A DNA stretch of 61,837 nucleotides, the filler included, from Nemertoderma westbladi (taxonomy: Eukaryota; Animalia; Xenacoelomorpha): the NCBI GenBank assembly GCA_032718475.1. It is 3 parts of 3 records of this genome, joined end to end, with 100 filler letters (N's around TTAATTAATTAA, not from the genome) between each part and the next. Parts side by side here need not be neighbours in the genome. Positions count along the whole stretch, not along the records: positions 23,317 to 52,970 come from JAUCBJ010008973.1; 2 more parts are not named here. One strand, given 5' to 3'. The position numbers and the translations under genes are program-made. This document shows positions 1,425 to 59,650 of this stretch, piece after piece (position 1 is the first letter of the stretch; every line of letters starts with the position of its first letter). The notes beneath the pieces were generated by a model that was not told the origin of the DNA, ran no database searches, and saw only the letters and a program-made list of their open reading frames with translations.

Positions 1425-4400
1425 CAACACGTTCGTGGGGCCTTCGCGCAGCACGAGGCCCAGTTATGAGATACAAATTAAAACTGAGCGACTGTATCAC
1501 AAAATCAGTATTTGAGAAATTTACCCACACCACCAATCAATTAAAGAAAGGGGTACAGTACGTGTTCAGCCCTTTTAATCTGCACCCCCCCCCCCCCCCA
1601 CCCTTCCCACCCACCAATACATAACTGTGACATCTACCACCCATGGAAGGGTAGCCCGAACTTATTTCCAATCGCACGTTCAATATGCAAAGCCAGGTGG
1701 TTTATAGGAATATAATAAACGCAGTACTCGTTTTCATTATAAGCCTCGTTGCGTTCGTCCTGTTTTGTATTTAAATATATTTCTTAAACGCAGGCTAGGA
1801 CGATCTTTATAATAATAATAACTAGGGATGCGATCAATGTGTGAAGCCAGGTGGTTTATATAATAATATAGTCAACGCAGTACTCGTCTTCTTTATAAGC
1901 CTCGTTGTGTTCGTCCTGTTTTGTATTTAAATATATTTCCTAAACGCAGACTGACGATCTTTATAATGCGTTCAATAGGCGAAGCCAGGTATGGTTTTGG
2001 TTTATAGGAATATAGTCTACGCAGCACTCTTCCTCATGAGCCCGATAGTGTGGCAATGTAGATGCAGCAGTTGCACGCGACCAGCCGGAAACTCAGAGCA
2101 ATAGGACTACTGCTTGTACAATGGGTGTCAATTTCAATACCGCCGGGCACTGGGTGATAGCAGAGTGAGATTAAAAGACCGAATTATTTCATCCTCGGTT
2201 ACGGTTAGTCCAGTTTGCCCGTAGCGGCAGCGATACCGAAAGTTGAGGTAACAGACAGAGGCAGCATTGGTGGTGAGTTGTTTGATTTCAATTCCAACAC
2301 TTTTCTGGGCAGCTGGGTAGACTCTGGTGGTAGTGGGTACCTGAACTAAGAATGCCAGTCAGCTGGTTAGTCCGCATAACTTCCATGGTTGCAGTTGCCG
2401 AGTCAATGGATGGTTGGTAGGGATAGGCCTAGGCCTATTGCTATTATTGTATTGGCAGATTGGTATGTACATCTACATCTGATTATACCAGTTGTCGGTG
2501 CCGTCGGTCGTACCAATACATAGTCTTTAATTAACATATTTAACCGTTAACAAGAGTAGAAACCGCAAACGAAGAAATTCATTTTCTTCCATCGCTGACA
2601 GGAGCGTAGAAATGCGGTTTAGTACTGTCGTAGTTCAGTACAGGTACCGTACCGGTAGTTCTGTAGTTGGCAGTTGCTACCAGTCCGGTTCTACAGTCTG
2701 ACAACCAACAGTAGGGCGGTACGGCACCAACGGACCCTCTAATCTAATTCAGGATCGCAGTCCAGCACTCCGGAGTCTGCACTGCAGTGCATAGCATGGC
2801 TAATTACTGAATTAGGGCCTACAGAATTAGGCCTGTCCTGAACCACGTACGTACCAGTATACGTGATCTATAATCACTGCACCGGTACCGCGGTACCAGT
2901 CAGCCAGTACCGTAAAACACCGAATACAGTATGGTATTGCAGTATTGCTGTATTGTCTGATTGCAGGATTCCTGATTCAGGGATTGACATTGAGTATAGT
3001 AGGCCTACCGGTACAGGCAGACAGGCCACAATGGTATTACTGCATGCAGTACTGTGTTTCGTAATTTGCTAGAAACCCAGCTGATTTAGTCTCCTAGCAA
3101 CCTGCTGATGTCAAGCGTTATAATTTTGGATAAATAAATTTATTATAACTGTAAGACAGTTACACTGGTGCTGCACGAAGGCCCCAAGCAAATTCAACTT
3201 GGAAAATTTCTAAACTTTTGACAGACTATTTGTGTACCAAGTTTGGTTACATTTCATCGAGGATTGATCGAGTTATTAACGTTCAAAATTGAACACCGCA
3301 AAAAAAGCGACAGAACGACAGAACGACAGGTAGAACCCTGTAATTACAGACCTGTTAGTATCTTAAGTATTGTATCTAAAATTCTAGAACGTTCTGTTTT
3401 TCTACAGCTGGAGGCACATCTTAGTAGGCTAAATCTGATCTATGAACTTCAGTCCGGTTTTCGTAAATCATATTCTACAGACACCTGCCTTATTAACTTA
3501 ACTGATACAATTAGATGTAATAACGCAAAGGGTTTATATACTGGTATGGTAATGTTGGACCTACAAAAGGCTTTCGATACTGTAGATCACGAAATTCTGC
3601 TTGGTAAGTTAGGCCTGATGGGTGTAGGTTCTATAGACTGGTTCAAGTCCTACCTGTCAGACAGAGGTCAAACTGTAGTCATTAGCAAATCGCTGTCTAC
3701 TGTACAAGAGATTACCTGTGGTGTACCGCAAGGTAGTATATTAGGTCCTCTGCTTTTTGTATGCTATGTAAATGATATGATAAGTAGTATAGATCCCGAT
3801 TTTAAACTCATTTTATATGCCGACGACAGTGCTCTTATTTTCTCTCATAAAGATCCTATCCATATTTCCCAAAAGTTAAGTGCAGTTCTAGAATCCTGTA
3901 ATGAGTGGTTGGTTGATAATAAGCTATCCATTCACTACGGTAAAACTGAAAGTATTTTGTTTGGTTCCAAAAGAAAGTTAAAGAAGGTAACTAAGTTTGA
4001 AGTCACTAGTAATGGACATAAGATTGAAAATAAAAAGGAAGTTAAATATTTAGGCGCCACATTGGATAACTGCTTATCAGGAGAAAGTACAGTGAAAAAT
4101 ATTTTCTCGAAAGTTAACAGTAGGCTTAGGTTTCTATACAGAAATAAAAATAGTTTAAACACCGACTCCCGCAAGTTACTTTGCTCTTCTTTAATACAGT
4201 GTCACATGGACTATGCTTGCTCTTCTTGGTATGAAGGCTTAACCAAACAGCTTAAATGTAAATTACAAGTAGCTCAGAATAAAGTAGTACGATTTATTAA
4301 AGACTACAAACCTAGGCACCACCTAACTCCAGATGACTTTTCTGAATCTGGACTACTTAACTTAGATAGTAGAGTTAAGCAGCTACGCCTTAACCATGTG

Positions 4401-10610: not shown

Positions 10611-11555
10611 GGGTTGCTGCGCGAAAAATTGTTTGGGCTTGAAACCATTGAATAAGGGGTAACAAGGTGCCCTGAATCGAGTGGTGGGGTCTGTTTTTTG
10701 TAAAAATACTAGGATATGGTGGAAATAGCGGGTTAATCAAAGTAAGCAAGGGTGCCAATTTTGAAAATCGGTTTTCGATCCATTCAAATACACATTAAAT
10801 CTCCATCAGTTTTCACAAGGTTTATATAAATTGAAGTGGAGAGTCTTGCGCGTCTTTTGCCACTACAATAAATTAAATTAAAGATGATGAAGATTGATAA
10901 AATGCTGTTCACAATGGCAAACTCGACAGATTGCCTGACTGGTATGCTAGTACTCAGCCCCTTTAGCCTATTGCAGTATCTGAGTATTGTAGCTTACTTC
11001 ATTAAGTTTGGTTTACGGGTGACCGATACACAATTTTAATATTCAAGTAGCCTACTACCATTTATTATTATAGTACCGGCTCACCTGTATTACAAGTTTA
11101 GTGTTATTTTAAATCTAATCTTTATGCCTTATCGTACTCAATACAGCTTGGAATGCAGTACTGCTGCTGCTGGAAACGCATTTTAACAATGTCCTCAACG
11201 GACTAAATTTAATTAATTAATTGTATTGTCAAAAGACGCGTAAGACTCGCCACTTTAATTGACTTTAATTGCTATATGTGAAATGATTGAGATTTAATAT
11301 GTATTTGAATGGATCGAAAATCACTAGCCAGTGAAACCAAGATAAGAAATTATCAGAGCACTGCGTAGAGACGTCAAATAAGTAGCAGCCAATCACAGCC
11401 GATTTTTACAATTGGCTTCCCGAGGTTACTAAACCCGCAATGTCGACAATTTCCTGGCGTTTTTACAAAAAACACACCCCGCCACTCGATTCAGGACAAC
11501 TTGTTACCCCTTATTCGATTGTTTCTAGCCCAACAATTTTTTCGCGCACCAACCC
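10611..11555. mobile_element. Non-autonomous foldback/MITE-like DNA element with long imperfect terminal inverted repeats (TIRs)
   Basis: GGGTTGCTGCGCGAAAA... at 10611 is the reverse complement of ...TTTTCGCGCACCAACCC at 11555; inverted similarity runs about 270 bp inward; TA on both sides. Confidence 0.82.
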
Positions 11556-15100: not shown

Positions 15101-15516
15101 TAATTTCGTAATTTGGTAGAAACCCAGCTGATTTCAAGCGTTATAATTTTGGATAAATAAATTTATTATAACTGTAAGACAGTTACACTGGTGCTGCACG
15201 AAGCCCCCAAGCAAATTCAACTTGGAAAAAGTTTGGTTACACTTCATCGAGGATTGATCGAGTTATTAACGTTCAAAATTGAACACCGCAAAAAAAGCGA
15301 CAGAACGACAGAACGACAGGTTGATTAATGGTACCCCTACGCTAAGGCTCACTCACTTCGTGGCTCGCCCCACAACAGAGCAACAGACACACCGATTGAG
15401 TTAGTGGTACCTGTATGCTAAGCTGGCTTACTTTCGTCGCTCGGCCCACAGACACACCGATTGAGTTAGTGGTACCTGTATATGCTAAGCTTGCTTACTT
15501 TCGTCACTCGCCCCAC
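12124..15516 (-). mobile_element. HINE-like element A with element B (13471-15373) nested in its microsatellite
   Basis: An uninterrupted inverted copy of A is at 55621-57131; terminal hairpin TGTAGGC-CACA-GCCTACA at 12124-12141 lies next to GTGGGGC (12147); GCCCCAC at 15510-15516; duplicated head modules at 15374-15516. Confidence 0.65.
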
Positions 15517-18719: not shown

Positions 18720-19559
18720 TTTATAAATTAATAGTAAAATACACAATCATCTTTTTAGTATAAAAAGTATTAATAGGAACATAATTATCCATATCCTATA
18801 CCATCAATTATGGCTGGCTAGCTACTATACTTCGCTAATATTTACTTTCTTGTCACCTTTGACCAGTGACCACCAGTTAGGTAATTAATTACCACTGAAA
18901 TATCGACCTTGAATTTTTTGTAACGCTTTATACACATTTAATTCTGGTTCTTTCTATGTTTATCCACATTTAAACCATTATTGTTTGATTCCAGCAATAA
19001 GCAGCCAGTCAATGTATTAAGACTAAAACGCCTTAAAGAGGAAAAGAGGAGGAAATGTGTCCTGAGGTTGGGGTTAGCAACATCTATTAGTATGCTGGTC
19101 CCTATCGTACACCAATGTTATGTACAGATCAAAATTTAAATGAGAAGAAATCACAACATACAAATTAAACTGTAGGTAGAGCCTTTTCCCATGAGAAGAA
19201 ATCTCACCCCTTTTTAAACAATCGAGGGTTTTGTCTGATCTCAATTGCAGCAAAGTCATTCAATGATTCATTATATTTTGTTTAATGAGTTTTATGTACC
19301 CAGTGTCACGTTCTCGCCTTTTTACGAACTGTTGTCAAAAATATATTGTCCATATAGTTTATTTCCAAATTTATGTATTTCTGTTCCCCGCACCCTATTA
19401 TGGCCTATGTATGTAAGAGTTTATATGTGAAAAACAAAAATTGTGGTTTCGTACAATGCAAAATTATAATTGCGGATAAACTGACGTATGTGTCTTATAA
19501 AAGTAAAAGTAAATTTTCTTCGGTCGCTAGGCCAGGGATTACGCACTAAGTCTGACGAC

Positions 19560-23216: not shown

Positions 23217-23316
23217 NNNNNNNNNNNNNNNNNNNNNNNNNNNNNNNNNNNNNNNNNNNNTTAATTAATTAANNNNNNNNNNNNNNNNNNNNNNNNNNNN
23301 NNNNNNNNNNNNNNNN
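23217..23316. other. Artificial scaffold spacer N44-TTAATTAATTAA-N44
   Basis: Exactly 100 nt with a six-frame stop word; identical construct at 52971-53070. Confidence 0.97.
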
Positions 23317-26300
23317 GGATCTAAAGCCACGTGGAGTGGTAGGTAATATGTCCTGTCCGTATTTGGTTCGTCAACCGGTAGCTCCACGGCCCATCCCTTC
23401 TCAATGTACTTCTTGATGGTTCTATGGATGTACTCGTTTTTCTCGGGGCTCCGCTTCAGTGTCTGTTTCAACTTGCGAAGCCTCGTAAGCACCATCCCTT
23501 TATTATCGGGCAACGGTAGCTTCGGTAGCTTCCATACCATTCCTATGGTATACCGTCCCTCTTTGCACATCATGGACTCGTCTACGCTCTGTTGAGCCTG
23601 TTTGTCCTCCACCGAGGTCCCTACCCCGGTCTCTTTTAATCCCTCAAAATCTTGTTTGAGCAGTCTTTTAAGCTGCTCCTCTGCTCTCTCATCACCTATT
23701 TCCTGCATAGTTCCTGCGAACATGCATCCTGATGTCTCCGACATCCTAAATGGTATCTTACTCTTGATTGGGCCACTCAGTGTCCACCCGAATGGCGTCA
23801 ATATCGCCACTGGGTCACTCTCCCTGTCTTCGCCGAAGACCGTTTGCATCCTCTCGTGGGCCGTCGGGCAGTCCATGCCTACTATGATGGATACTTTCCT
23901 GACGTCCACCTCCGGGATTGAGAAGTCAATATTATCCAGGAACTTATATTGCTCGACCTCGATGTTAGTTGGTCGCCTGGCATTGATATTGATTGACTCT
24001 ATCACTTGGATGGGGTCGATAGTTGCCCCGTAGTTACATCCCGGTGCGACTGCTGCAATCGCGCACCGTCCGGTTCTCATCTCCAGGACCTCGTCTTTGC
24101 TCGAGATGGTTGTTACTGCCATTCTACTTGCCCTCGTCCTCAATCCTATTTCTTCGGCCACCCAATCCTCAATTAAAGTGAAGGCAGCTCCGCTATCGAC
24201 CAGCATCAGAGTGGTTACTGATCGATTGCCTTCCCCAATCACTCGCACCGGTACTACCCCAAGTAGCACCGTTCCTCTCTTCTTCGCCCCTACTGTGCTC
24301 GTCGCCATTGTTTGGCCTTTATTTCGACGGTACTTGACCGGCGTCTCCTCGCATTGCCTTGCTCGATGTCCACCCATCACACATCGCGAGCAGATCTCAT
24401 TTTTGTCCGCGTATACTACCTGATCCTCTCTGGGTAATGCTTGCCAGTAGCTGCAGTTCATGGTTAGATGTTTTGCATTTGTATGTAGCTGGCATTTAGC
24501 CTCTGGGTCGTAGCCGTCCTTGTACAGTGCATCGCGTATCGCAACTGCATTTGTACTAAAGTCCCTACTGTTTTTATAGTTTGTGCTCGGCCTACTGGAT
24601 GTATTGGGGTTATGTTTGTTCGTGTTGTTGGTTTTCCCCTGTCCGGCCTTACTCTCTGCTAACTGTGGACTCGCAGTCCCCTGCGTCGCTGCGTATGGCA
24701 GTGATTGTCTGAGCTTTGGTAATGAATTCGACGTATTGTGCTCCGGTTTCGGTCGATGGTAGTCCGTCTTCGGTCCCTTTCCCAGACTGTCTTCGCTATA
24801 GACTGGGTCGGTTATTAGTTCTGCTTCGTAGCTTAGGAAGCTAGACATTTCCTCTAGACCCGGTTCCGCACCCTTTTTGTCTCTAGTGGAGAAAGCGACT
24901 CTTCTCCACTTGTTACGCAGCCATATCGGCAGTGCCTGCGCTATCGTGGTGATGTTGTTGGAGGCGTTGAGCTCATATGGTGCGTCCAACGTCTTTAACA
25001 CGATCAGCGCCTTTTCAACTTTGTTAGCAAACGTCTTAATGCTAACGGGATTATCCTGTAGGCCACCCGTTGTTATGCCTCTCAGGGTTTGCCTGATGAT
25101 CTTGGCTGGGTGCCCGTATTCCCTGTCCAGTGCCCGCCATGCTGTCGTGAAGCCCCCTTCTATACCCTGGTATTGCCTCACGATGTCGTATGCTGGGCCT
25201 CCCGTGTATACTTGCAGATACTTTAGGCACTCCGCCTGCGTCAAATTTTTTGTTAGTATCTCGTTGCTATACATGCGCCGAAACTGAAGATATTCTTCCG
25301 GCCTACTCCCATCGAATTTGAATGGTTCCACGGGTGGTAACTCGATCCTTGTTTTTAACGCATCGATTAACGTGGCCATCCCCACTGCTTGCGCCTCTAA
25401 TGGGTTCGATGGATGTTGCATGGTTTCCCTTGCTTGGTGCGGTCCACCCGTTCTATTCTCTGCTCTCCTCTGACTTGGGTATATCATTGGGGGTAGCGGC
25501 CCCCTCCATATTTCTGTGTCACACGATTTGTTTTCGTCCAAGGGATTCGTTCTCGCTTCTATCGGGGTATATTGTTGATATTGCGATGGGGGAATGTCAC
25601 CCTGTCCCCCCCCCACCAATATGTTTGGTACTGGGGTTGATGTTAATATATTGGGGCCCATGCATTTATCCGCAATAATTCCCCCCTCCCCTGGGTATAT
25701 GTTATAACCTTTGGTGCTGTAGTCATACTGCTGCACTGGTACCGGTATAGGCCTATCAGCTTCTGGCCTACCTACCGGAATGTATTCCGCGACTTCCGGG
25801 TCTAATCCCGTTGTCCGCGCTATCCTATCGCCTACGGTGCTCCTGTCAGCATGGCCTACGGTATGTGCAGTAAGGCCTACAGTATGTCCTACAGTCTGTA
25901 TGTGCTCGGAATCGAAGTTTATTCTTCTCGAATAGTCCTCCCCGCGGCTACCGTATTCTCGATCGGTAGGTACATCCCGACGGAAAGTTTCCCTTCGACC
26001 CCCTCTGCTGCTCTCTTCTTCGCGTCGGTACGTCACGTACCTCTCTCTCGGCGCGTAGTGCGCCTCGTCGGGTCGCGTCTCTCCGGGACGACGGCAATCT
26101 CCCGTAGTTCGACCCCACCGACTCTCTTCTTCCATCTCAATCACCGACGGCTCACTATCCGTCCTCACTCTTCTATCGTTCGCGGCGATGCTTCTCCTAT
26201 CATCTTCTCCTCTTCTTCCCTCAGTGTAGTATTCCCGCTCGTGAGATCTCTCGTTGACCTCCCGGTTAAACTCCACTGTTCTTCTTCTCTCTTCTGATCG

Positions 26301-29022
26301 GGCTTGACACTCCGTCCGCCCTCTCGCGGCGTCAACCTGCATCTCTCTGCTCGATCGCCCGCCGCTGGGGACACTCGCGGTCCCCCTATTACTTTCCGTC
26401 GCCGTGTGTTGCGGTTTACCTACTTCGGCCCGCGCATTATCCGCCGACGCCTGTGGGACACTCTCTGCCCCCCCCCCTCTCGTCACTAACTTCTCGCGGT
26501 GGGGTGCTCGTAGCCCCCCCCCACCCGCCACTTCTAACTTCGGTACCTCTTACTACACTCCTGTACCCTTCTTGTGGGGCGCTCTCCGCCCCCCCCTTCT
26601 CGCCGCTAATCTCACGTGGTGGGGCGCTCGGAGCCCCCCCCCACTCGCCACATCTAACTTCACTATTTCCTACCTCGTCTCTACACTTTTCTCCCGTCGA
26701 CACAACATTTACATTGGGGCTGGGTCCGCTTACCCCCGCCCCTCTCTCCACTACTACCTGGCCTACCAGGCCTACTTCGGGTTGTCTCAACCCCGCCGAT
26801 TCCGGCCTACTAACTACGAGGCCTACCAGGCCTACCTCGGGTTGGCCCAACCCCGCTACTTCCGCCCTACTGACTACGTGGCCTACCAGGCCCACCTCGG
26901 GTTGGCTCAACCCCGCCGTCTCCGGTCTACCCACTGCGTGGCCTACCAGGCTCGCCCCGGGTTGACTCAACCCCGCCGTCTCCGGCCTACTTACTACGTG
27001 GCCTACCAGGCCCTCACCCGCCGGGCTATGTGCGTTGGACACGTCTACATTAATAATACCACTGTGATTATCCTGCGCACCAAAGCTAGAAACAATATGT
27101 TGCGTTATAACAGTATTCGGATTATTTTGTAAAATCGAATTCGGGTTATTATTTAAATTATTTGGATCATTTTGTGAAATCGAATTCGGATTATTACTTA
27201 AATTATTTGGACTATTCTGTATAACTACATCACTAGAATTACTCTGTACGTCAATATTAGAATCGTTCTGATTTAAAATAATATTATTACTATTAGGTAA
27301 CGTATTTCCTGCAATAAAAATTTGGTTAGAGTCGTCCAATACAGTATTATTAATATTAGCGTTATCTACTGTATTAGTGTTATTACCCCCCCCGCTCGTA
27401 CGATCACACCAGTTTCGTGTCCGTAGTGTGGTCCCTGTCAGTGGAGTATTAATAAACGTATCCACGACCCCCGGCTCCTCTGAAATGTTCGAGCCTGCCC
27501 CTCTCTCAGACACTCCTGCCCGCGCCCGTTCCACCTCGCGCGCGTGTACAGCCGTATACTCTACGAATTTGTCTCGCTGTTTCTCTAACTCTATTCGGCC
27601 ACTCTCCACTCTTGTTACTTTCTCCTTTGACTCTCGTTTTTCCTGCTCGATCAATTCCAGCTCTCTCCTAATCCCCTCTCTTCTTCTCGCCTTACGCTCT
27701 TTGCGTTCACTTTCCTCTCTCGCCTCACGTTTCTCGCGTTCACTTTCCTCTCTCGCCTCTCGTTTCTCGCGTTCCGCCTCGCGTTTCTCCTCGCGTTCCC
27801 TTCGTTCCCTTCTCTCTCTCGCCTCGCGTTCCTCGCGTTCTCTCTCGCGTTCCGCCTCGCGTTTCTCGCGTTCTGCTTCGCGTTTCTCGCGTTCTGCCTC
27901 GCGTTCTCTCTCGCGTTCCCTCTCTTCCCTCAACTCTATCTCCTCACACTCCCTAAGGTTCCTCGCGGCCCTTTCGCCCCTCTCCCTCAACTCTTTAATC
28001 GACACCGTTTCCCTCTCTAGCATCACTCTCCCCTCCTCTAGCCGTCTACCTAGTTCTCTATTCGCCTCTACCACTACATTGAAACGGTGTCTAGCCTCTA
28101 TCTCTCTCACCCGTCTTTCTTTTTCGGAGGATGTAACAGACTTATCGGTTGCGACGGATTCCCTCCGCCTTCCCGACCCGCTGGCTCTCCCCCCCTTTCC
28201 GGAACTCCCTCCGACCGACGAGACCGAACCCGCGGGGTCAACCTCGGGTTCGCCCTCCTCTGGTCTGTTCCAACCTACTGTCTTTATACCCCGGGCATCG
28301 ATTAAGTATGGCCCTAAGTACACTACCCTAGGTTCTATACTCCCATACCGCCATGAGTCATACAGTTCCTCGGCGACCCAAGTCGCTCTCTCCTCGGCCA
28401 ATCCTCTCTGCCCGAAGCGCACTAGATAATATAAATGTCTATTCGACTCACCTAGTCCTAGGTTCAGTTTTACCTCGTCTATCCTCTTCCCTTCTCTGGC
28501 CTCCTTTATCAGTCTCCGGGTCGCGTTGTAGGCCCGTCGAAGTCGCTCGGAAACCCCGACGTCCTCGTCGCCGACCCCTCGTCCGTCTCTCCGGGTTCGA
28601 CGTCGTACCGGCGGCCCCACCGTCGCCGTTCCGGTGGGCCGTGCGTCGCCCTCGGCCTGCGGTTGGCCGGCGACATCGGTGTCGACATCCCCGTCGTCTC
28701 TCCGGGTCCGGCGTCGTACCGTCGGCCCCACCGTCGCCGTCTCGGTGGGCCGTTCGTCGCCCTCGGCCTGTGGCTGGCCCGCGACGTCGGTATCGACATC
28801 CCCGCTGTGTGTCGACTCGTCTCTCTCTTCCTCGAGCCCGATCTCTCTATCCTCCGGCTCGATCTCTGGTTCCAGGCGGTCCCCCTCTACTCGAATCCCC
28901 GGTTCGCCCGGTACGGATGGCTCCGGTGTCGTGGGCGTATATCGCCTGGTCGCGGCCTCGCGGATCGTTAGATCGTCGTCGTCCGGGGTCCGCGTGGGTG
29001 TCACTTCACCCGACTCGCTCAT
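23317..29022 (-). CDS. BEL gag-pol polyprotein, split into two ORFs by one extra base in a C10 run (26468-26477)
   Basis: ATG at 29022; the sister repeat unit reads EKGGAESAPQ, and deleting one base gives ERGGAESVPQ, which fuses the two ORFs. Confidence 0.75.
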
Positions 29023-29127
29023 CTTTTGTCTGTTGGTGGCTGGTGGTATCTGAGTCTATTAGGCTAGGGCAGCAGTTGTTATTTAGTTACTGTGACGGGA
29101 TCATCCGGAGATGAACCCGATTTATCC

Positions 29128-29818: not shown

Positions 29819-32419
29819 TACGATATAATTCTAATGTTTTTTTTTTACTACTCTAGAATATCAATTACGCGTAATGATAAAACAAGATGGGGAGTTTTAA
29901 AAGCTCAACTAAATAGTAATTAATATTCTAGAATAAAGACAAAAACATTAGAATTCTCAAAATAAACACCTTAGAATTTTAATAATATCTTCGAGAATTT
30001 TTGTTCAAATTAAAACGGTTTTCAGATTCAGAATATGGAGATGAAGCCCAGTTCTAATGATATCTAGATTACACTCACTCCAAAGGCGGGAAATAAAGCC
30101 GACGGATATGATTAAATATTGCGAAATAGCACAGAAATTCAGAAATCCGGCTCCGCCAGCAGTAAGATAAGTTGTCGAACTATCAGTATACCAAATTTCC
30201 TAGCATTTGAGTGAAATTTGTAAACATTAGGGGGGGGGGGGGGGTGGGGGTCCGATAAAAAAAGGTTGTTGTATGAAGTGTGATGGTGTAAACAAAAAAT
30301 TCATATTCGTATGTATACATTGGGTTTGTATAATAAACCATTATAATATGAGAGTGACTGGACGATGGTTAGCTGGTTGTATGTAAAACAGATATCTCTA
30401 TTTATTGAGTTCAGTTAATATCAAAGACAAACAAAGTTATATTACTTTAATATAATTCAAATTCCAATTTAAAGTAAAGTAACTTACCGTACCGGTATTA
30501 ACCCCACTGTGACAGATAGGTCGAATTTTTAACAGTAAATCAGATTCTAAAACTTTAACATTTTCTACGAAATAATTTGTTCAAAATGATGTTTGAGATA
30601 TGTATTTGTTCAGGAAGTCGCCACTTGGTGGTGTATATGACTATGTCGTTTAGTAACCCTATTATATGGGTTTGTCTAGGGGGGGTATTGGTTGCCTGTG
30701 TGTTACTGGCTATGGAACGCCCAGCTAGATCCTCACATATTTCCCTACTTGCTCCACTTCCTGGGAAGCTGTGAGCCAAGGAAAGGTTGCCTGGTGCAGC
30801 TCTCGGCTGGCATTGGAATTCCCAATAACTGCTCAAACTCAATTTTATATCACTAGAGTTATCAATCAGTCCGTAACTCTGTTACTGCTATTCAGCTATT
30901 GAATATAAATCATTTCAGTATAGATTTATGTAAATAGTTTACCCTGTTATATTATTATCAATTTACCGCCTTTCTTATGGCTTTTCTAACTAAGACTGAC
31001 TGTTAGGGACAGGACAGGTATAATTAATTAATTTATGGTATAATGTCGTTCAGCATTAGCATTAGCATTCCTGCTTAACACAAAATACCCAGTGCGATGT
31101 TAATTTCCTTTTAATCATGAATGAGGCTTATCGTTAATGAGTCGGTATTTTGCGTGGAAAGTCCACATTTTTATTCCACATTACTGTTAGAGTAAAAGTA
31201 TATCAAAAAGTATATAAAAATTAATTATGCCAATTTTTTTCCTTTAGCAATATGGATTTTACATAGTTCACCCCAACAAGGTAAATATTGGTGGGATTTT
31301 CCGCAAATTTGGTGTAGAGACTGAAGTTTTATCAGTTTATCATTTTCTCTGGTACAATATTAGGAATATTACTGTATAAAGGCAGTTTGTCCTAACACTG
31401 TAACAAAACAAGGGGTTGTAACCAGCCCGTCAGATTTGTCGACGCCAAAAATCCTTGTTCCCAAAAATTTTACCTGCTATATCATTAACTATTGTTGTTT
31501 TTATACTTACTTAGCCTACAAAGCAATTCAAAAACAGTATCAAAGAATATTTTCACATACAAAGTACTGTATTTGGAAATTCAACTGTGAACTTAAACTG
31601 TTTATGCAAAGTAAACCCACGTCCCAAATTTCAAAACATCCGTGAAGAATAACTACTGTAGTTGTAACTATTGTAGTACATCGCGTAGGTTTATTGTAGT
31701 AAATTTAGTTACAATAATTACTGCCGCTGAGATACATCACAGCAGATATACAGTACTGCAGTACAGCAGTAGGTAGGTTAGGCGTTAGAAAATCAAGTGT
31801 TGGGAAAACAGATGAAAGGAAGCAACCAAAATAATAAACTAAAGTTAGTTAGCACGTGTCGCAAAATTATACTGAGTAGCAAGTGTTGAAATCAGTAAAA
31901 ATACTACCTGAGTAGTATCAGGACTCTTTTAGCTGAAAATTGTAAAGCTTAATTAAATTTAATAATTCAGGGGGAATTATTATTTTGATTCTTTACTTGA
32001 TTTCTGGAACAAATTAAACTATAAAACTTGTTTTGATAAAATACTAACATATTAATAGTTTAAATTTATTTAGTAAATTAGTATAACAAGTTAAGTAAAG
32101 TTTACTTGCGAATTAAACTTAAATTATGAAATGCGTGTGTCTCATTTTATTAATTAATCTTTACATTTTGATTGTAAATCTTATTTATTCAATAAGATTG
32201 ATTACCTGAAAACTTACAATGATTGGTACTACAGTACTTGTATGTGCATCTGGACATGGATAAGTCACATGGGTCGATAGATAGCAATATTAACTCGTTG
32301 GGACATTGGCTCAATTGTACATGATGCCTTATTTGGTATAATTTTATTGTGTGATAATTGGAGTTTGAACAGATTGCTGGACACGACATCCCACACACAA
32401 TAAACTAGTCTAATACGAC

Positions 32420-33200
32420 ATTCCGTTCAGCCGTTATTCAGTTCCACAAATTCACTCATGTCAGCATGTCAACAGACGACACCAGTACAACTGACTACAC
32501 TAACAGACTAATGTGCGTGCATGTGTGTGTGCCAGTACAGCAGTACCGGTACATGCTCTTCCCATTTCTGTATTTGAAAGTCAGGAAGTGCAGAAGTGGG
32601 TGCGAGCGCGAGGTCTACTGCAGTACAGCAGTACCGGTACTGTCTATTTCCTCATTTCAGTAATCGACTATCAACTAACTGACTAGGCATTGCCAGACAT
32701 CCGGTTCGACTTGGTTTCCGCACCTTGACTACCGGACTACAGCATATTTAACTACTGAACTACCGGCAGACCGGTACAGTTCTGCAGTTGGACATTCTGA
32801 TACTGATAGTAGGCCTACCAGAATACAGGAATAGTGATCCATACTGCCATACCCCAGTACCCAGTGGCCTGTACCTGTGTACAGACCTATCTCCAAAAGC
32901 AGCAATACAGCAATAATATTTTACTTAGGTATACCATATACCGGTAAGTAACTGCCGGGCCGGTCACCGGTTGCCGGTAATTCATTCAATTTTAATTCAA
33001 GGTTTCAAGTACCCGTACTGCCGTACCTAATTACCGGGGTGTCGGTTACCAGGTTACTGCATTAGGCCTACTGCATTTAGGTTTAGATGCAAATTCCGTT
33101 TTCTTCGAAAAATATTTAGTTTAAATAATTATTTACAATCAACTCGTTTTGGCTTAGGCAAATCATTTAAAAATAATTTATCTATCGCTTCAAATCAAAC
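32420..33200 (+). promoter_or_regulatory. Probable promoter/5' UTR region of the kinase, saturated with micro-duplications; possible UTR intron
   Basis: Less AT-rich and CpG-containing; CAGGAAGTG ETS-like word at 32582; donor-like GGTAAGT at 32943; acceptor-like TTAG near 33157. Confidence 0.45.
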
Positions 33201-34361
33201 ATGTCTGATGATCAAATAGCCATTCCTGAATCCGGCCGAAAGCTGTTCGCCAGCCTCTCCAAGGATAAATTCCCTGACCTCTCGGGCCACAACAACTGGC
33301 TCTCTAAATGCCTTGTCGAGAACAACGACATCTACTTCAAACTTTTCGACAAGAAAACAAAAAATGGTTTTCCCTTCCTCGACGCCATAAAGACGGGTAT
33401 CCAGAACGCCGGACATCCGTTTATAATGACGGTGGGCTGCGTTGCGGGCGACGAGGAGAGCTACACCGAGTTCGCGGATCTCTTCGATCCCGTAATCGAT
33501 AAACGCCACGGCGGATACAGCAAGGACCGCAAACACGTGACGGACCTCGACTACACGAAGCTCAAGGGGGGCGACCTGGACCCCAAGTACGTGCTATCGT
33601 CCCGTGTACGCACAGGACGCAGCATCCGGGGCCTGGCGCTGCCGCCGTTTACCAACAAGGAGGACCGCAAGAAAGTCGAGAAGATAGTAGTCGACGCTTT
33701 GGCGTCTCTAGACGGGGAATTCAAAGGGAAGTATTACTCGTTGGAGACGATGAGTGAAGCTGATCAGGATAAACTCATCGACGATCACTTCCTCTTCGAT
33801 AAGCCGGTTTCTCCGCTGCTTCTCAGCTCCAACATGGAGCGGGATTGGCCGTCGGCTCGGGGGATCTGGCATAACGACGAGAAGTCCTTCCTAGTGTGGG
33901 TCAACGAGGAGGATCACACCCGGGTTATATCCATGCAGAAGGACGGGAACATGAAGGAAGTCTTCCGGAGGTTCTGCGAAGGTCTCCAGAAGGTAGAGGC
34001 GGCCGTGAAGAAGGCCGGATCCGGGTTCATGTGGAACGAGCATCTGGGCTACGTGCTCACGTGTCCCAGCAACCTCGGGACCGGACTGCGAGGCGGAGTC
34101 CACGTAAAGATCCCGCACGTCTCAGCCCACGCCGAGTTCGAGAACGTGCTGACCCGTCTCCGTCTACAGAAGCGCGGCACCGGAGGGGTGGACACCAAGG
34201 CGGAGGGCGGGATATTCGATATCTCCAACTCGGATCGGCTGGGATTCTCCGAGGTTCAGCTTGTTCAGTTCGTCGTCGACGGGGTCAACCTCCTCGTCGA
34301 CATGGAGAAACGTCTGGAGGCCGGTAAGGATATCGCCGATCTGATACCCGCACAGAAGTAG
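33201..34361 (+). CDS. CK: Creatine kinase (cytoplasmic-type phosphagen kinase), 386 aa, intronless coding region
   Basis: [18 protein letters not shown] specificity loop, [36 protein letters not shown] and RGTGGVDT; no mitochondrial presequence; single domain. Confidence 0.93.
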
Positions 34362-35009
34362 TTGAATTGCTACAGAAACTCTTAACTTTAGTTTATCGGA
34401 AATTCAATAGGTTCTTTTTGTTGTATCAGGTTTTTAGGTTGAATTTATTGATTCTATTAGACTCATTGTTTTAGCGACTAAACATCTCACCAAGTCTATC
34501 TCAATTCATCATCACTAAATAATTATTAACTAAAATGATTCTCTCTATACCAAAATGTTTACTTACACTAACTAAGGATTAATTTATCAGTGTGTGTTAC
34601 AATTAGTTTAATCATTGACACTGCGTGCTTATATGTGCTGTTAGTTAACAAGGATAATAATTATGTCATTAACACTCTAAACGCATCGATAACTCGTTAT
34701 TAGTTTATTATTCAGTTATATTATTATATATTATGATTTGCGGAATTGGCATTCAGAATTACATTTATTCATATCGGGTTTGGGATGGATTGATTTATCC
34801 TCGGGGTTGGGCGAATTATTTACCGGGGAACTAAATTCAATCATAATCTTATTGACATTGAATCACCCCCCTCCATCGCACGGCTCAGCCCATGTTGCTA
34901 CAGGCCAGGCTTCTAAAAATGGCATTGGCAGAGGATTGGTTTAGCCAATGAGGTATATTAGTTGGGGATACTGATCCTACCTAAAACGGCGCGTTCGTAA
35001 TTTTATGTT

Positions 35010-39890: not shown

Positions 39891-40914
39891 AGTTTAAGTT
39901 TGTTTTATATTTTTTGGAATTATTTGTGGGAAGTTGTGTGTAAGTTTTGTGGCGCAAGTTGTTGTGTTTCTAAGTTGTATATATTTTATTCCCTTTCTAA
40001 TGAAATTACGATTATTATTCTCGGGACTTGAATTAAATAAAATACGAATATACAATAACCAGTAACAACCATAAACACAGTAACAACTAGTTTTGTTCGT
40101 TATTCTTACAACCACAGTATCCCATTCGCATTCATAGAATCCCAAATCAGTATACTCTATGTAATAATTCAGCCCTTTCTTGGGTACTGATTGCAGCACA
40201 ATGTATTCTCGGCACCCTATTGGTTGGCCGTTAGATTGAGTCACCAATGGCAGTTACCTTCAACACATGTGAGTAATGTGTTTATTCCATAATGAGCTGG
40301 CAAGATTATACTACTAACTGAGTGTAGCTCACCCAGTAAATACCATCTCCTCATTGGCTATTCCTACAGGGCCAATCCTACAGACTCTAATTCTCTTTTA
40401 AAATCTCAACATGTGCTTCAGAGTTCTTTGTTGTTAGTATTTGTGCGGCCCTAGATTTATCGTTTTGCTTAACTTTATTATTTTACTTCGTCAGCATTCA
40501 ACATTTATGTTGGTTTTTCTAATATATATTGCGAACGAGGAGATTTTTAAGGTTTTTGTTTGCGTTTTGTTGTGGTTCCTTCTACCCATTGGTATGTCGG
40601 TTCTCGCTACCAGTATGGTCCTAGCTGAGGTTCAGGCTACAGACAACGGTTCTAACTCACCTTCTTTAGCGATTGTGCCCTTGTTAATGAGAAGGAAACG
40701 TCGTCTTCCTAAAATACCATTTACGTGGAACGATTCTGCGGACCAACCAACACATAAGAAAGGTTTGTCTTCTACTTTTAATTAATACGTGGAACGTTTG
40801 TGAGGAACAGCCAGCCAATGAGAAAATCTTGTCGCATATTAAAGTGCCGCATCCATTGAAATAAACCTAATTTGTTGTTGAAATCACATGGTTTATTCAC
40901 TGCACTTCAGAGAT

Positions 40915-43035
40915 GGTTTATTTTACTGTGATTCAATTAAGTTAGTTTATTTTACAGTGATTCGATTAAGTTAGTTTATTTTACAGTGATTCAATTAAGT
41001 TAGTTTATTTTACAGTGATTCAATTAAGTTAGTTTATTTTACAGTGATTCCATTAAGTTAGTTTATTTTACAGTGATTCAATTAAGTTACCAGGATTTCA
41101 CTTTTCGGTCGACTTTTTATTGGAATTTTATATATGAAGATTTTTTTTAATTTATCTTTATTAAGTGTTTTATAACGCTTATTTCTGTCTTATAACCTGT
41201 ACATATACTAATTCGTTTATTGTTTTGGTTAAATTCAGCCCTTCTGTAACCTGTGTTTTTAGTGAAAACCTGGTATTCTTCACATGGGGGTAACTGCAAA
41301 GTGAAATATATCGGTAGAAAGTCTGGTATTCTTCACATGGGCCGTTTATTTTACTGTGATTCAATTAAGTTAGTTTATTTTACAGTGATTCAATTAAGTT
41401 AGTTTATTTTACAGTGATTCAATTAAGTTAGTTTATTTTACAGTGATTCAATTAAGTTAGTTTATTTTACAGTGATTCAATTAAGTTAGTTTATTTTACA
41501 GTGATTCAATTAAGTTAGTTTATTTTACAGTGATTCAATTAAGTTAGTTTATTTTACAGTGATTCAATTAAGTTAGTTTATTTTACAGTGATTCAATTAC
41601 GTTAGTTTATTTTACAGTGATTCAATTAAGTTAGTTTATTTTACAGTGATTCAATTAAGTTAGTTTATTTTACAGTGATTCAATTAAGTTAGTTTATTTT
41701 ACAGTGATTCAATTAAGTTAGTTTATTTTACAGTGATTCAATTAAGTTAGTTTATTTTACAGTGATTCAATTAAGTTAGTTTATTTTACAGTGATTCAAT
41801 TAAGTTAGTTTATTTTACAGTGATTCAATTAAGTTAGTTTATTTTACAGTGATTCAATTAAGTTAGTTTATTTTACAGTGATTCAATTAAGTTAGTTTAT
41901 TTTACAGTGATTCAATTAAGTTAGTTTATTTTACAGTGATTCAATTAAGTTAGTTTATTTTACAGTGATTCAATTAAGTTAGTTTATTTTACAGTGATTC
42001 AATTAAGTTAGTTTATTTTACAGTGATTCAATTAAGTTAGTTTATTTTACAGTGATTCAATTAAGTTAGTTTATTTTACAGTGATTCAATTAAGTTAGTT
42101 TATTTTACAGTGATTCAATTAAGTTAGTTTATTTTACAGTGATTCAATGAAGTTAGTTTATTTTACAGTGATTCAATTAAGTTAGTTTATTTTACTGTGA
42201 TTCAATTAAGTTAGTTTATTTTACAGTGATTCAATTAAGTTAGTTTATTTTACAGTGATTCAATTAAGTTAGTTTATTTTACTGTGATTCAATTAAGTTA
42301 GTTTATTTTACTGTGATTCAATTAAGTTAGTTTATTTTACAGTGATTCAATTAAGTTAGTTTATTTTACAGTGATTCAATTAAGTTAGTTTATTTTACAG
42401 TGATTCAATTAAGTTAGTTTATTTTACAGTGATTCAATTAAGTTAGTTTATTTTACAGTGATTCAATTAAGTTAGTTTATTTTACAGTGATTCAATTAAG
42501 TTAGTTTATTTTACAGTGATTCAATTAAGTTAGTTTATTTTACAGTGATTCAATTAAGTTAGTTTATTTTACAGTGATTCAATTAAGTTAGTTTATTTTA
42601 CAGTGATTCAATTAAGTTAGTTTATTTTACAGTGATTCAATTAAGTTAGTTTATTTTACAGTGATTCAATTAAGTTAGTTTATTTTACAGTGATTCAATT
42701 AAGTTAGTTTATTTTACAGTGATTCAATTAAGTTAGTTTATTTTACAGTGATTCAATTAAGTTAGTTTATTTTACAGTGATTCAATGAAGTTAGTTTATT
42801 TTACAGTGATTCAATTAAGTTAGTTTATTTTACTGTGATTCAATTAAGTTAGTTTATTTTACAGTGATTCAATTAAGTTAGTTTATTTTACAGTGATTCA
42901 ATTAAGTTAGTTTATTTTACTGTGATTCAATTAAGTTAGTTTATTTTACTGTGATTCAATTAAGTTAGTTTATTTTACAGTGATTCAATTAAGTTAGTTT
43001 ATTTTACTGTGATTCAATTAAGTTAGTTTATTTTT
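40915..43035. repeat. 29-bp AT-rich satellite (about 6 copies at 40915-41090, about 58 copies at 41345-43035)
   Basis: Unit TACAGTGATTCAATTAAGTTAGTTTATTT. Confidence 0.97.
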
Positions 43036-43168
43036 CTGTGTTTCGATTTATTTATATTCCGATAATTCAATTAACATGGAACCTTAGAATATCGAAAGTC
43101 ACATATCATATTCATTGACAATAATTATTTTATTTACAATGTATCTTTTCAAGACAATCTGACTGACT

Positions 43169-45897
43169 ACATACCAATCGTTCCACTCACGTGTCGCACA
43201 TACCAATCGTTCTACTCACCTGTCGCACATACCAATCGTTCCACTCACGTGTCGCACATACCAATCGTTCCACTCACGTGTCGACATACCAATAGTTCCA
43301 CTCACCTGTCGCACGTACCAATCGTTCCACTCACGTGTCGCACATACCAATCGTTCCACTCACGTGTCGCACATACCAATAGTTCCACTCACGTGTCGAC
43401 ATACCAATAGTTCCACTCACCTGTCGCACATACCAATCGTTCCACTCACCTGTCGCACGTACCAATCGTTCCACTCACGTGTCGCACATACCAATCGTTC
43501 CACTCACGTGTCGACATACCAATAGTTCCACTCACCTGTCGCACATACCAATCGTTCCACTCACCTGTCGCACGTACCAATCGTTCCACTCACGTGTCGC
43601 ACATACCAATCGTTCTACTCACCTGTCGCACATACCAATCGTTCCACTCACGTGTCGCACATACCAATAGTTCCACTCACGTGTCGACATACCAATAGTT
43701 CCACTCACCTGTCGCACATACCAATCGTTCCACTCACCTGTCGCACGTACCAATCGTTCCACTCACGTGTCGCACATACCAATCGTTCCACTCACGTGTC
43801 GACATACCAATAGTTCCACTCACCTGTCGCACATACCAATCGTTCCACTCACCTGTCGCACGTACCAATCGTTCCACTCACGTGTCGCACATACCAATCG
43901 TTCCACTCACGTGTCGACATACCAATAGTTCCACTCACCTGTCGCACGTACCAATCGTTCCACTCACCTGTCGCACGTACCAATCGTTCCACTCACGTGT
44001 CGCACATACCAATCGTTCCACTCACGTGTCGCACATACCAATAGTTCCACTCACCTGTCGCACGTACCAATCGTTCCACTCACGTGTCGCACATACCAAT
44101 CGTTCCACTCACGTGTCGCACATACCAATCGTTCCACTCACGTGTCGCACATACCCATCGTTCCACTCACGTGTCGCACATACCAATCGTTCCACTCACG
44201 TGTCGCACATACCAATCGTAACACTCACGTGTCGCACATACCAATCGTTCCACTCACCTGTCGCACATACCAATCGTTCCACTCACGTGTCGCACATACC
44301 AATCGTTCCACTCACGTGTCGCACATACCAATCGTTCCACTCACGTGTCGCACATACCAATAGTTCCACTCACCTGTCGCACGTACCAATCGTTCCACTC
44401 ACGTGTCGCACATACCAATCGTTCCACTCACGTGTCGCACATACCAATCGTTCCACTCACGTGTCGCACACACCAATCGTTCCACTCACCTGTTGCACAT
44501 ACCAATCGTTCCACTCACGTGTCGCACATACCAATCGTTCCACTCACGTGTTGCACATACCAATCGTTCCACTCACCTGTTGCACATACCAATCGTTCCA
44601 CTCACGTGTCGCACATATACCAATCGTTCCACTCACGTGTCGCACATACCAATAGTTCCACTCACGTGTTGCACATACCAATCGTTCCACTCACGTGTCG
44701 CACATACCAATCGTTCCACTCACGTGTCGCACATATACCAATCGTTCCACTCACGTGTCGCACATACCAATCGATCCACTCACGTGTCGCACGTACCAAT
44801 CGTTCCACTCACGTGTCGCACATACCAATCGTTCCACTCACGTGTCGCACATATACCAATCGTTCCACTCACGTGTCGCACATACCAATCGTTCCACTCA
44901 CGTGTCGCACATATACCAATCGTCCCACTCACGTGTCGCACATATACCAATCGTTCCACTCACCTGTCGCACGTACCAATAGTTCCACTCACGTGTTGCA
45001 CATACCAATCGTTCCACTCACGTGTCGCACGTACCAATCGTCCCACTCACGTGTCGCACATACCAATAGTTCCACTCACGTGTTGCACGTACCAATCGAT
45101 CCACTCACGTGTCGCACGTACCAATCGTTCCACTCACGTGTCGCACATACCAATCGTTCCACTCACGTGTCGCACGTACCAATCGATCCACTCACGTGTC
45201 GCACGTACCAATCGTTCCACTCACGTGTCGCACATACCAATCGTTCCACTCACGTGTCGCACATATACCAATCGTTCCACTCACCTGTCGCACGTACCAA
45301 TCGTTCCACTCACGTGTCGCACATACCAATCGTTCCACTCACGTGTCGCACGTACCAATCGATCCACTCACGTGTCGCACGTACCAATCGTTCCACTCAC
45401 GTGTCGCACATACCAATCGTTCCACTCACGTGTCGCACATATACCAATCGTTCCACTCACGTGTCGCACATATACCAATCGTTCCACTCACGTGTCGCAC
45501 ATACCAATCGTTCCACTCACGTGTCGCACATATACCAATCGTTCCACTCACCTGTCGCACGTACCAATCGTTCCACTCACGTGTCGCACATACCAATCGT
45601 TCCACTCACGTGTCGCACATACCAATCGTTCCACTCACGTGTCGCACATATACCAATCGTCCCACTCACGTGTCGCACATATACCAATCGTTCCACTCAC
45701 GTGTCGCACATACCAATCGTTCCACTCACGTGTCGCACATATACCAATCGTCCCACTCACGTGTCGCACATATACCAATCGTTCCACTCACCTGTCGCAC
45801 TACCAATCGTTCCACTCACGTGTCGCACATACCAATCGTTCCACTCACGTGTCGCACGTACCAATCGTTCCATTCACGTGTCGCACGTACCAATCGC
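43169..45897. repeat. 29-bp satellite, about 93 copies
   Basis: Unit CATACCAATCGTTCCACTCACGTGTCGCA with 28- and 31-bp variants. Confidence 0.97.
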
Positions 45898-47851
45898 AAG
45901 ATCGTCAAGCGACTCTAATTTTGTTCGAATTGCGTTACAATTAAATGACATGGACTGAGTAACATTCATTGCCTTAATCCCCCTATTATGAGAAACTTTA
46001 TTACTATAATTTGAACTGCGTGAAATATTTCACAGTTGGTTACATTTGTAATTATAATTTTTTTGTTATTTAAATTGTTTTACTATTACCAACTTCCATT
46101 CGATATAATACTCAGTTCAGTTGTGGGTACTCCCGCACTTATGTGGCTCGGCATCGGGCCAGGGCGGTGTTGTTAGGTCTCCTTATATATTACGGCATGA
46201 GATGAGTTCTGTGGTGATGGAGAATATGATGACCTTATATTATATAGGAATACTACCAGAGCTTTTTATATTAACTTATTTAATTAATTAGTTATTGATT
46301 GCTATGAATTTCTCCGAGAAGTTCTGATTCTCCGTGTGGTGCGAGCCATGTATTCAGATAAACTGTAATGGGATGTTCTTATATATTCTTGCAAAATTAA
46401 TTGTTTTAATTATTCAAAATTAATTATTTTGTATCGCCACCGTTTTTTTTTCGTCCAACAACCTAATCATTTATTCAAACAGTGGCGCTAATTGGCCACA
46501 ATTGAAATAAAGTTTTATTTATTGTTTTGGTTAGAAAACACCGACATGTAACTTGGTCCTTTCCCTTAATGCTAGAATTTATGCTAGAGTTTTTAAACCC
46601 AATAAACGCATATTTGTTGTTTGCGGTCATTTTGCGCAATTCACTCAATTATTTACGAAATGTTAATGCACAACAGCGCGAAATACTCTATACAAAATAA
46701 TGAACATTGCCCAAATCATCATACAACTGGCAATCACTCTCTTGCTGTAATTGCTACGTCATTAGCCGACAACTGTTATAAAAATAAAACTAAAATAAAA
46801 CTGTACAAAAATGTTACAAAAATAAAACTGTAACCTCAGATCTAGTCTTTAGACTCTCGGTTTATTGTTTTGGTTAGAATAGCCTGCGACTATTCCTCTG
46901 CCTCATTAGAATAACGGTTGTCGTTGTCGGCTGCGGTTTTCGGCGTATCGTGTAAATACAAACCCTCTCCCGCAATAAACCACGAGCACTTCGGCGCCAT
47001 ATCGTATATACTTACAGTAAACACTGAGATATTCTACAAAAAGTGACTTACTTACTTTACCTAGAATGACCTCTTATTGGTATTGCACAACACACTGCAA
47101 ACAATATTAGGTATGTCGTCTTAGTGTGACTCATTGTTGGCAAATATAAGTAACAAAAGGAGTCATAATATGTATAGGGTATACCGGTACCGGTACACAC
47201 AACTACAACAGCAAAGCCAAACATTAATGTAATAATAATTACTAACCAACTTCCAGCTATGCTATTATGGTATTTTGTTCTGCCGCACTCTCTGTTTGGG
47301 CATTAAGGTAACATTGATTAATGTTTTGAACTAAGGGTATCCTGTTTTTGGTTTCGGTTACTCTCTCTCTCTCTCTCCCTCACACACGGGCAGCTTACAG
47401 TGAATGCGGCTCTATGAGTCAGTAATGATTGTTTGCTCCTATTGTGCCGGTCTCGCCAGTGTAATAGGGGCCGCCGTCCGCATACTGCCGCCTTGACTTC
47501 TCTCTCCCTACGGTCTGGGGCCGGGGCCGGCCCTCGCTGTGTGACTAATACTTACGTCATTAGGGCATTGGCCGTCAGTGCGATGACGTGTATCAAGGGC
47601 AGTGTGCGTGCGGCGTCGTGGTTGAGTTACATCACTCTGTGTCACGTTGCGTAATGGCTAGCGTTCTAATAACCCCGATAATTAGTTACTGCTGGTCGGA
47701 CATAAGGTCCCAGATGTCAGGGATTTATTAAAATAAACATCTCGCACAGTTTGTCAAACTGAAAGTAATCGATAGAAAGTCAACTACTATTCTATTCAAA
47801 TAATTTCTTTATAAATCACCAGTGGGAATGTAACGTAATTTTTAAAACAGT

Positions 47852-53943: not shown

Positions 53944-54460
53944 GTGGGGCGAGCCACGAAGTGAGTGAGCCTTAGCGTAGGGGTAGGCCTACCATTAATC
54001 AACCTATCGTTCTGTGCGTTCTTTCGAGGTTTTTTTGCAGTGTTCAATTTTAAACGTTAATAACTCTGCGAATCCTCGATGAAATCTATCCAAACTTGGC
54101 ACACATGTTGTTTGGCAATGGTTTAGACATTTTCCAAGTAGAATTTACGTGTGGCCTTCGAGAAGCTAAGATAAATGCAGTTAATTAGGTAATTAATTAA
54201 TTGCGGTAAAAAAAAGGCATTTTCAAGCCTGTATTTTAGAGGAAATTAATTATTTTATCGTATAAGATATAAATAATTAGACTTAAAAGTTATTATGATG
54301 TAATCCCCATACCACATTCCATTATAGTTTTTAATTAGTTCAGCGTTATTAAATCTGTTTTTAATTGATCTAAAGTAATTAGAACGACATTAACTGCTTA
54401 GTTATTGGCCAGCAGATTAGAATTCGCTGATAGAATTCTTCTAGGATGGGGTGTGTAGAC
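53944..54460 (+). mobile_element. HINE-like element 5' part (B-type head joined to A-type body)
   Basis: GTGGGGCGAGCCACGAAGTGAGTGAGCC head, then GTGGCCTTCGAGAAGCTAAGATAA body as in 55810-56100. Confidence 0.65.
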
Positions 54461-58585: not shown

Positions 58586-58826
58586 TAGGGTGCATTTATA
58601 GTCAGATGCCGTCCGATCCGATCCGATCCGATCCGATGCATTTCGGCAATTATTGTAGCTACAACTGTCAGACTGCAGACTGTACAAGCCTAGCTGCTTA
58701 GGCTAGGCCTACTTCTAACACTGAACGCAGTCTGGTTGTATGACTATTGCTGTATTGGCCTATTGCTATTGTCTGATTGTATATGGCATGGCAGTACTGC
58801 AGTATGCAGGTATGGCAGTACACAGT

Positions 58827-59650
58827 ATGGGATCATTCGTAGCTCAGTAGCTCTGTAGCTGACTGTGGTGTTCAGAAGGAAATCGGACGCGCGTTGGATG
58901 TCCTGGAATGGAGTCTACCGACCAACTTGCAGGGTGAGGCTGTCCCTCTGCAGCTCTGATCCTGGGCGGTGGAGACTGTGCTGATCAGGATGGCGGAAAC
59001 GGGAAGCGGGAAGACCGGGGCATTCTGTATCCCGATACTACAGCTGGTCCATGAAACTCTACGGTACAAACTCCGAGATGGAAAACTCGATGGGAAATCG
59101 GGGGGAAGAACTAGGCCTACGAAATTTCAGTTGAACCCATTCGATAGAGCGATAGAGGTGACCAGTTGGCCATCTCCCCGGACGGATTGCTGTGTCATGC
59201 GCGTGGCCAGAGGAGTTGGCACGGTACCCGGACGACTAAAGGAATAGTCGGATCCGGTCGTTACTATTCAGCTATTACGAGGCGACGGTAAAGGACGAGG
59301 TGCGAGGGGCCATGTCGGGTTGGTTGGAGCACCGGAAGCGCGACACTCGATATCGGGACTGATAAAAATAGTTTTGGCTTCGGAGGAAACGGTAAGAAGT
59401 GCTTCGGGCGGCGTTTTGACGACTATGGACAACCATACGGACTAGGCGACGTGATCGGTTATCGGATCGATCTGGATGTGGGCACAATTGGGTACCGGTA
59501 CAGTAAAAACGGAAGTGATCTCGGGAAAGCTTTCGACAGTTCGAGATTCCCGCTAATTTACGCAAACTCCCGTTATTCCTGTATTCCCGCAGTCTGTGCT
59601 GTCGTATCTTTAAAGAATGCTGAAATTATGTTTATTTTCGCCGAATTTAT
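58827..59650 (+). pseudogene. DDX1: DDX1 DEAD-box helicase 5' fragment (Q motif, motif I, SPRY domain), frameshifted, no introns
   Basis: EWSLPTNLQ, PLILGGGD, ETGSGKTGAF, LNPFDRG, WHGTRTTKG, CRVGWST, GTDKNSFGFGG.GKK, SKNGSDLG.AFEIP, LKNAE. A SPRY domain after motif I is diagnostic of DDX1. Confidence 0.9.

Follow-up and report, generated by a model that had tools for sequence, protein, structure and literature searches.

Excision footprints are usually observed in laboratory assays, few at once. Among the closest described systems, as set out in excerpts of the cited sources, in Sleeping Beauty the cuts fall 3 nt within the element, giving CAG overhangs and a footprint that has one extra target copy (PMC7351741), and ZB is reported to leave Tc1/mariner footprints of 0-3 bases (PMC7913693). 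Transib and RAGL elements duplicate 5 bp and have ends that begin with CAC (PMC1131882, PMC7204232); one Transib family prefers a cCAWTGc target, and hAT and RAG cut via hairpins on the donor flank, as Transib is expected to (PMC1131882). Duplications of 5 bp are also given for hAT5 (PMC12730594, citing Repbase Reports), and hAT ends invariably have G as their third base (PMC1131882). In NuwaI, of the PHIS superfamily, CWG is a pre-existing target that becomes duplicated (PMC4482050).

How does a locus in Nemertoderma westbladi compare? Next to a creatine kinase (CK) gene, this genome carries a dense patch of motifs in which a 5-mer is repeated exactly on either side of CAG or CTG (5-mer-CWG-5-mer). 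These motifs are probably heritable scars left by a cut-and-paste transposon that has CAG...CTG ends, a 5-bp duplication, and a Sleeping Beauty-like 3-nt overhang. The window, that is, the whole stretch of DNA analysed, has 61,837 nt and joins three records of assembly GCA_032718475.1 with filler, and its neighbouring parts are perhaps unlinked; window positions 23,317-52,970 are JAUCBJ010008973.1 and include both CK and the main patch:

33201..34361, plus strand: CK frame, intact and uninterrupted, 386 aa, motif-free
32423..33057, no strand assigned: main patch, 16 exact 5-mer-CWG-5-mer motifs
Starts of the main-patch motifs: 32423, 32457, 32499, 32533, 32586, 32621, 32750, 32762, 32777, 32821, 32839, 32850, 32870, 32903, 33013, 33045
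31328..31771, no strand assigned: upstream minor patch, 4 exact motifs, including a stacked pair at 31751/31759

The first-pass annotation had reported at least 14 such cases in about 640 bp; the 15 examples it listed all lie where it placed them, and one more, at 32850, brings the count in 32423-33057 to 16 (11 CAG and 5 CTG). It gave a chance expectation of about 0.02 under uniform base composition. Across 5000 dinucleotide shuffles of the 635 bp, motifs average 0.027 per shuffle and never exceed 2, and sequences generated by Markov chains of order 2-4 fitted to the same region contain no more than 5 (3000 runs each) against the 16 observed. The spacer is specific: of the 42 CAG/CTG in the main patch, 16 have perfect 5/5 flanks and six more have 4/5, whereas five control trinucleotide classes, representing other 3-nt spacers, yield 0-2 perfect flank matches. 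The length is equally sharp: among 176 CWG sites in four patches, flank duplication is perfect at length 5 in 38 cases, at length 4 in 3, and at lengths 6-9 in none. The adjacent coding sequence, described as intact at first pass, is so; the CK frame is roughly 65-70% identical to most listed animal CKs and forms a long branch, left unplaced by an unfinished quick tree of 91 rows.

The whole window holds 60 exact 5-mer-C[AT]G-5-mer motifs; six come from an 8-bp microsatellite inside a dispersed repeat and do not count as scars. With all 13 duplicate or microsatellite hits removed, 47 independent sites enter the statistics on 5-mers and strands. CAG and CTG, one word read on two strands, occur at these sites in a ratio of 27:20, and the 5-mers, strands merged, are of 33 distinct kinds. 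This diversity upholds the earlier view that the carpet is not a satellite. One main-patch motif, at 32903, doubles as a perfect 8-bp tandem repeat and might have arisen by plain duplication instead of as a scar.

The dispersed repeat itself, which we take to resemble non-autonomous Helentron/DINE-1 elements, lies at 1061-1428, 3063-3334, 13098-13478, 15131-15450, 53943-54389, 55620-56142, and 58170-58514, and adjoins two scar patches. Other repetitive DNA includes two neighbouring 29-bp satellites at 40770-45900, with different sequences and about 59 and 93 copies, and LTR-retrotransposon-like gag and protease frames (DUF1759, aspartyl protease) on the minus strand at 23265-29055, interrupted by an assembly gap. 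An Rfam search of the window returned no matches.

Polymorphisms of 8 bp between haplotypes had been anticipated, and they exist. Contigs of four public runs (X1-X4, at most three samples) were compared over 31250-34600. The 12 indels listed, of 31, include six of 8 bases, and five of these six are the gain or loss of exactly one unit: in three, one unit of the window is missing (31758, 32499, 33044), and in the other two, behind 32410 and 32644, a 5-mer that stands alone in the window is expanded to 5-mer-CTG-5-mer. The sixth, behind 33089, is a misfit, a 5-mer duplicated around a non-CWG spacer. Besides the stacked pair 31751/31759, one unit of which is absent in X1, X2, and X3, the polymorphic sites are:

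32499..32511, no strand assigned: filled in the window; X1, X2, X3 lack the 8 bases
33045..33057, no strand assigned: filled in the window; X1, X2, X3, X4 lack the 8 bases
32411..32415, no strand assigned: empty in the window, 8-base insertion in X1, X2, X3 giving 5-mer-CTG-5-mer
32645..32649, no strand assigned: empty in the window, 8-base insertion in X1, X2, X3 giving 5-mer-CTG-5-mer

X1, X2, and X3 show all five scar events and X4 shows that at 33044; since X1-X3 differ from the window in the same way, the runs amount in effect to one alternative haplotype. Among the rows listed, the haplotypes differ within 32400-33100 by 4 scar indels and 8 substitutions. Duplicated blocks within the window provide no clean 8-bp empty/filled pair of the CWG class.

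At 32411, 32499, 32645, and 33045, the empty allele lacks a CWG where the insertion would go, and thus has none to copy, save where the 5-mer itself contains one. Together with the 33 different 5-mers, this contradicts replication slippage; slippage or selection for a binding motif is a very improbable and largely refuted origin of the carpet, even though one of the 16 motifs is a perfect 8-bp tandem repeat and duplications of 5-7 bp are common in the patches. Nor is the carpet an artefact of assembly: the X2 contig crosses the region with 92 gap letters, 72 of them in listed rows, and because just 20 are unlisted, at least 12 of the 16 motifs must be present in this independent assembly. Just before the CK start codon, at 33190-33199, the window has a bare 5-base duplication, of which X1-X3 have one copy only and X4 shows both states; it may be a zero-spacer form of the scar.

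Insertions of the same kind interrupt a dead gene in another part of the window, preceded by a second patch:

58850..59650, plus strand: DDX1 pseudogene, truncated, intronless, next to the dispersed repeat
58745..58860, no strand assigned: second patch, 6 exact motifs, directly 5' of the DDX1 pseudogene

The homologues of this pseudogene came from a HMMER search (a prior homologue search with the same piece had returned none), and the piece was compared with five of them in a frameshift-aware alignment blind to the motif. The motifs at 58946 and 59264 are 8-base insertions relative to all five homologues; that at 59532 is an 8-base insertion relative to four and one of 9 bases relative to the fifth, and that at 59574, the weakest case, appears as a 7-base or merged insertion. 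At 59296, a 5-mer-TG-5-mer is a 7-base insertion relative to five of five. The CWG motifs are, then, 8-bp insertions, and those inside a dead frame cannot be promoter words maintained by selection. The pseudogene has also gained a 6-bp insertion at about 59490-59493 and an 8-bp insertion at about 59143. It has acquired many small insertions in all, is free of stop codons where the two best homologues align with it, and was possibly captured together with its promoter.

Where do the insertions fall? Five patches (3,795 bp in total), with borders set after the hits were seen, hold 47 motifs, or 12.4 per kb; the other 58,042 bp hold 7 (0.12 per kb), with about 2 expected. CK has 18 motifs in the 1.5 kb upstream, and the DDX1 pseudogene has 6 in the 0.35 kb upstream and others inside. 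None lies within 1.5 kb upstream of either of two UGT genes or downstream of CK, and the CK, UGT, gag-pol, and LINE frames are likewise free of them. Patches thus mark the 5' ends of two of four host genes (CK and DDX1, not the two UGT genes), and one patch is gene-less:

2305..3025, no strand assigned: third patch, 8 exact motifs, without a recognised gene

From these few patches, the source element may be suspected of targeting open chromatin. The UGT genes belong to a tandem duplication (974-9051 and 13011-18726) that carries two uninterrupted UGT frames about 91% alike, whose best matches are about 30-38% identical; a UGT 3' fragment lies at 839-973 and a degraded UGT piece at 10247-10527.

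The third patch is itself duplicated, at about 14359-15100, and the two copies have an identical centre base at 8 of 8 common sites; their scars are therefore inherited. This agreement on CAG or CTG argues against programmed, ciliate-like somatic excision of germline-limited elements, a scenario otherwise invited by many scars, no element, and an assembly that is probably somatic. Such excision, or an assembly artefact of the kind that the X2 contig contradicts, is an extremely improbable source of the motifs.

What chemistry would leave a scar of this form? The first-pass annotation had proposed a non-specific 5-bp target duplication. The length is exactly 5 and the sequence varied, as proposed; the target is less indifferent than that, with a palindromic N-A-N-T-N bias (49 of 94 symmetrised sites have A second and T fourth in the 5-mer) such as would be expected of a two-fold symmetric transposase. 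A 3-nt staggered excision had also been suggested. The spacers fit such a putative cut as a graded series: after removal of the exact motifs, the patches still contain shorter forms with no spacer (9 versus 2.6 expected), with C/G (10 versus 1.3), and with CA/TG (6 versus 0.4), each count reached in 0 of 500 shuffles. Trimming of a 3' CAG overhang at either end would be expected to give this series. Periods 8 and 9 are mildly raised after the same removal (counts as high as those observed come up in 11 and 5 of 500 shuffles), so that other duplication processes act too, and periods 10-12 show no enrichment in the patches.

The model that accommodates these forms has several steps. A cut-and-paste DNA transposon with presumed CAG...CTG ends would insert, duplicating a 5-bp target, and later excise. 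Its transposase would cut the non-transferred strand 3 nt inside each end, leaving a 3' CAG on both flanks; the two overhangs would pair C-G, A-A, G-C and be ligated, the mismatch resolving to CAG or CTG, and nibbling ahead of joining would produce a CA, C, TG, G, or empty spacer. More tentatively, accessible germline DNA at some gene starts would be struck repeatedly, and full-length insertions would be purged or depart, with coding hits persisting in dead genes only.

Set against the described systems, the scar is most readily read beside Sleeping Beauty and Tc1/mariner, with which, as excerpted, it shares a constant CAG/CTG between duplicated target bases and the retention of 0-3 terminal bases. 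The difference is in the target: TA is duplicated there, whereas here it is a varied 5 bp with the N-A-N-T-N bias, and TA flanks both sides of the CWG spacer at none of 47 sites. The relation to NuwaI, on the excerpt available, is a reversal: the trinucleotide is the same, but here CWG is the new, unduplicated part.

Could a known 5-bp family, hAT5 or Transib-like, have left the scar via unusual cutting or repair? The duplication length suits both Transib/RAGL and hAT5 (PMC12730594); the G at position 3 of hAT ends (PMC1131882) is compatible with CAG, and the cCAWTGc preference of one Transib family (PMC1131882) comes close to the N-A-N-T-N bias. But the excerpts describe Transib/RAGL as having GC-rich targets and ends that start with CAC (PMC7204232), compared with a CAG end predicted here from the scar, and excision through flank hairpins (PMC1131882), in these elements as in hAT5, would be expected to leave flank-dependent palindromic filler, not a CWG spacer that is constant and independent of the flanks. 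An origin from such a family is thus quite unlikely, and the transposase implied by the scar appears to fit none of the families checked (Tc1/mariner, Transib/RAGL, hAT5, NuwaI) as these sources portray them.

A host enzyme is another conceivable agent: a domesticated transposase, or a nuclease with a polymerase or reverse transcriptase, might add a fixed CAG at 5-nt staggered breaks in accessible DNA, without any mobile element taking part. In its favour, the scars are highly uniform and no element was found beside the 47 in the patches. The 2-nt spacers tell otherwise: CA/TG accounts for 6 runs and AG/CT for 2, one of the latter in native coding sequence, which is what end overhangs predict, and a 5'-truncated retro-insertion would give AG/CT instead. 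We know of no host enzyme that adds a fixed CAG at 5-nt staggered breaks, and this explanation is unlikely. It is further weakened by two TA-type insertion classes and a matching MITE, which suggest that ordinary transposons come and go in these patches:

TA-GGCC-TA, positions: 2424, 2430, 3000, 32810, 33063, 53984, 58704, 59112
TA-CCGG-TA, positions: 2650, 3006, 32544, 32632, 32939, 58539, 59493
10611..11555, no strand assigned: MITE, 945 bp, TA duplication, GGG...CCC ends, inverted repeats of ~125 bp

Within the CWG patches, TA-CCGG-TA occurs 7 times versus 0.48 expected and TA-GGCC-TA 7 times versus 0.05; outside, they are less dense (5 and 4 versus about 0.5). They look like 6-base Tc1-type scars of elements with CC..GG and GG..CC ends, respectively, and the TA-GGCC-TA at 53984 is absent from two other copies of its host repeat. 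The MITE contains internally inverted segments and, at 10975, a single CWG scar. Its GGG...CCC ends and TA duplication would yield TA-GGCC-TA, which makes it a candidate source of that class but not of the CWG scars.

The element behind the CWG class did not come to light in the window. The first-pass annotation had envisaged an element with terminal inverted repeats, CAG ends, and a 5-bp duplication; a strict CAG...CTG search of the window found none, and a relaxed search for inverted ends in the window gave 258 pairs, the best of which, with matches at 12 of 20 bases, is no better than chance. One candidate, 48744/51385, was rejected as part of another dispersed repeat. A Pfam scan of 118 window frames (115 of at least 62 aa that avoid the masked arrays and the main genes, together with UGT1 and two frames from retrotransposons) identified RT, UGT, DEAD/SPRY, and gag/protease domains and no DDE transposase. 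A literature search, with Repbase and Dfam outside its coverage, found no description of the scar or of a family with such chemistry. A metagenome scan with a repeat word of the N. westbladi genome gave no matches; two metagenome matches to a stacked-scar word were motif-selected, look unrelated to the host, and are not counted as support. An unrelated eukaryotic contig (L001) has similar words at 670-740, with two exact motifs just upstream of a gene; picked by the motif pattern itself, it is a lead only.

If the scars are insertions near a gene start, do they enter its transcripts? X4 is listed as "DNA?" and was treated as RNA by inference, on the strength of its GT..AG joints and its depth profile, which is 10^4-10^5 over the CK frame and a few hundred upstream. 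Its contigs suggest an intron:

32460..33119, plus strand: likely first intron of minor CK transcripts, from single low-depth contigs of X4

The X4 joints, which run from 32459, 32547, and 32579 to 33081-33158, have GT donors at 32460, 32549, and 32580 and AG acceptors ending at 33080, 33119, and 33157; a further GT donor is likely at 32513. The first-pass annotation had placed the carpet upstream of CK; its 16 motifs are there, but part of the main patch appears, with X4 read as RNA, to be the leader and first intron of minor CK transcripts, and the splice contigs, single and of low depth, cannot place the transcription start. Two donors read GT-CAG, one in the exact scar at 32457 and the other in a one-mismatch scar at 32577; lying within scars, they would owe to the scar their +4/+5 donor bases, going by the donor consensus. 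X4 depth rises about a hundredfold near the 33119 acceptor (33100-33200), and most CK transcripts may begin or be trans-spliced in that interval.

In sum, inserted 8-mers make up at least 128 of the 635 bases of the main patch, or 152 with the TA-type classes included. The chances seem evenly balanced that an undescribed cut-and-paste lineage, which combines a Tc1-type 3-nt overhang with a 5-bp duplication, uses germline gene starts as hit-and-run landing pads, such that about one fifth of the CK 5' patch is scar, roughly one scar arises per two substitutions, and 5-mers ending in GT create working splice donors. With 4 scar indels to 8 listed substitutions, scars look like a leading natural class of mutation in this regulatory DNA. 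What the scar predicts about its maker, namely its ends, the length of its duplication, and its pattern of cutting, amounts to a precise search image for the transposase. Found by a regular expression, it would also map past germline accessibility, and the turnover of promoters and leaders due to vanished transposons would become testable. If the transposon reading is true, such visits would be a major source of change near gene starts.
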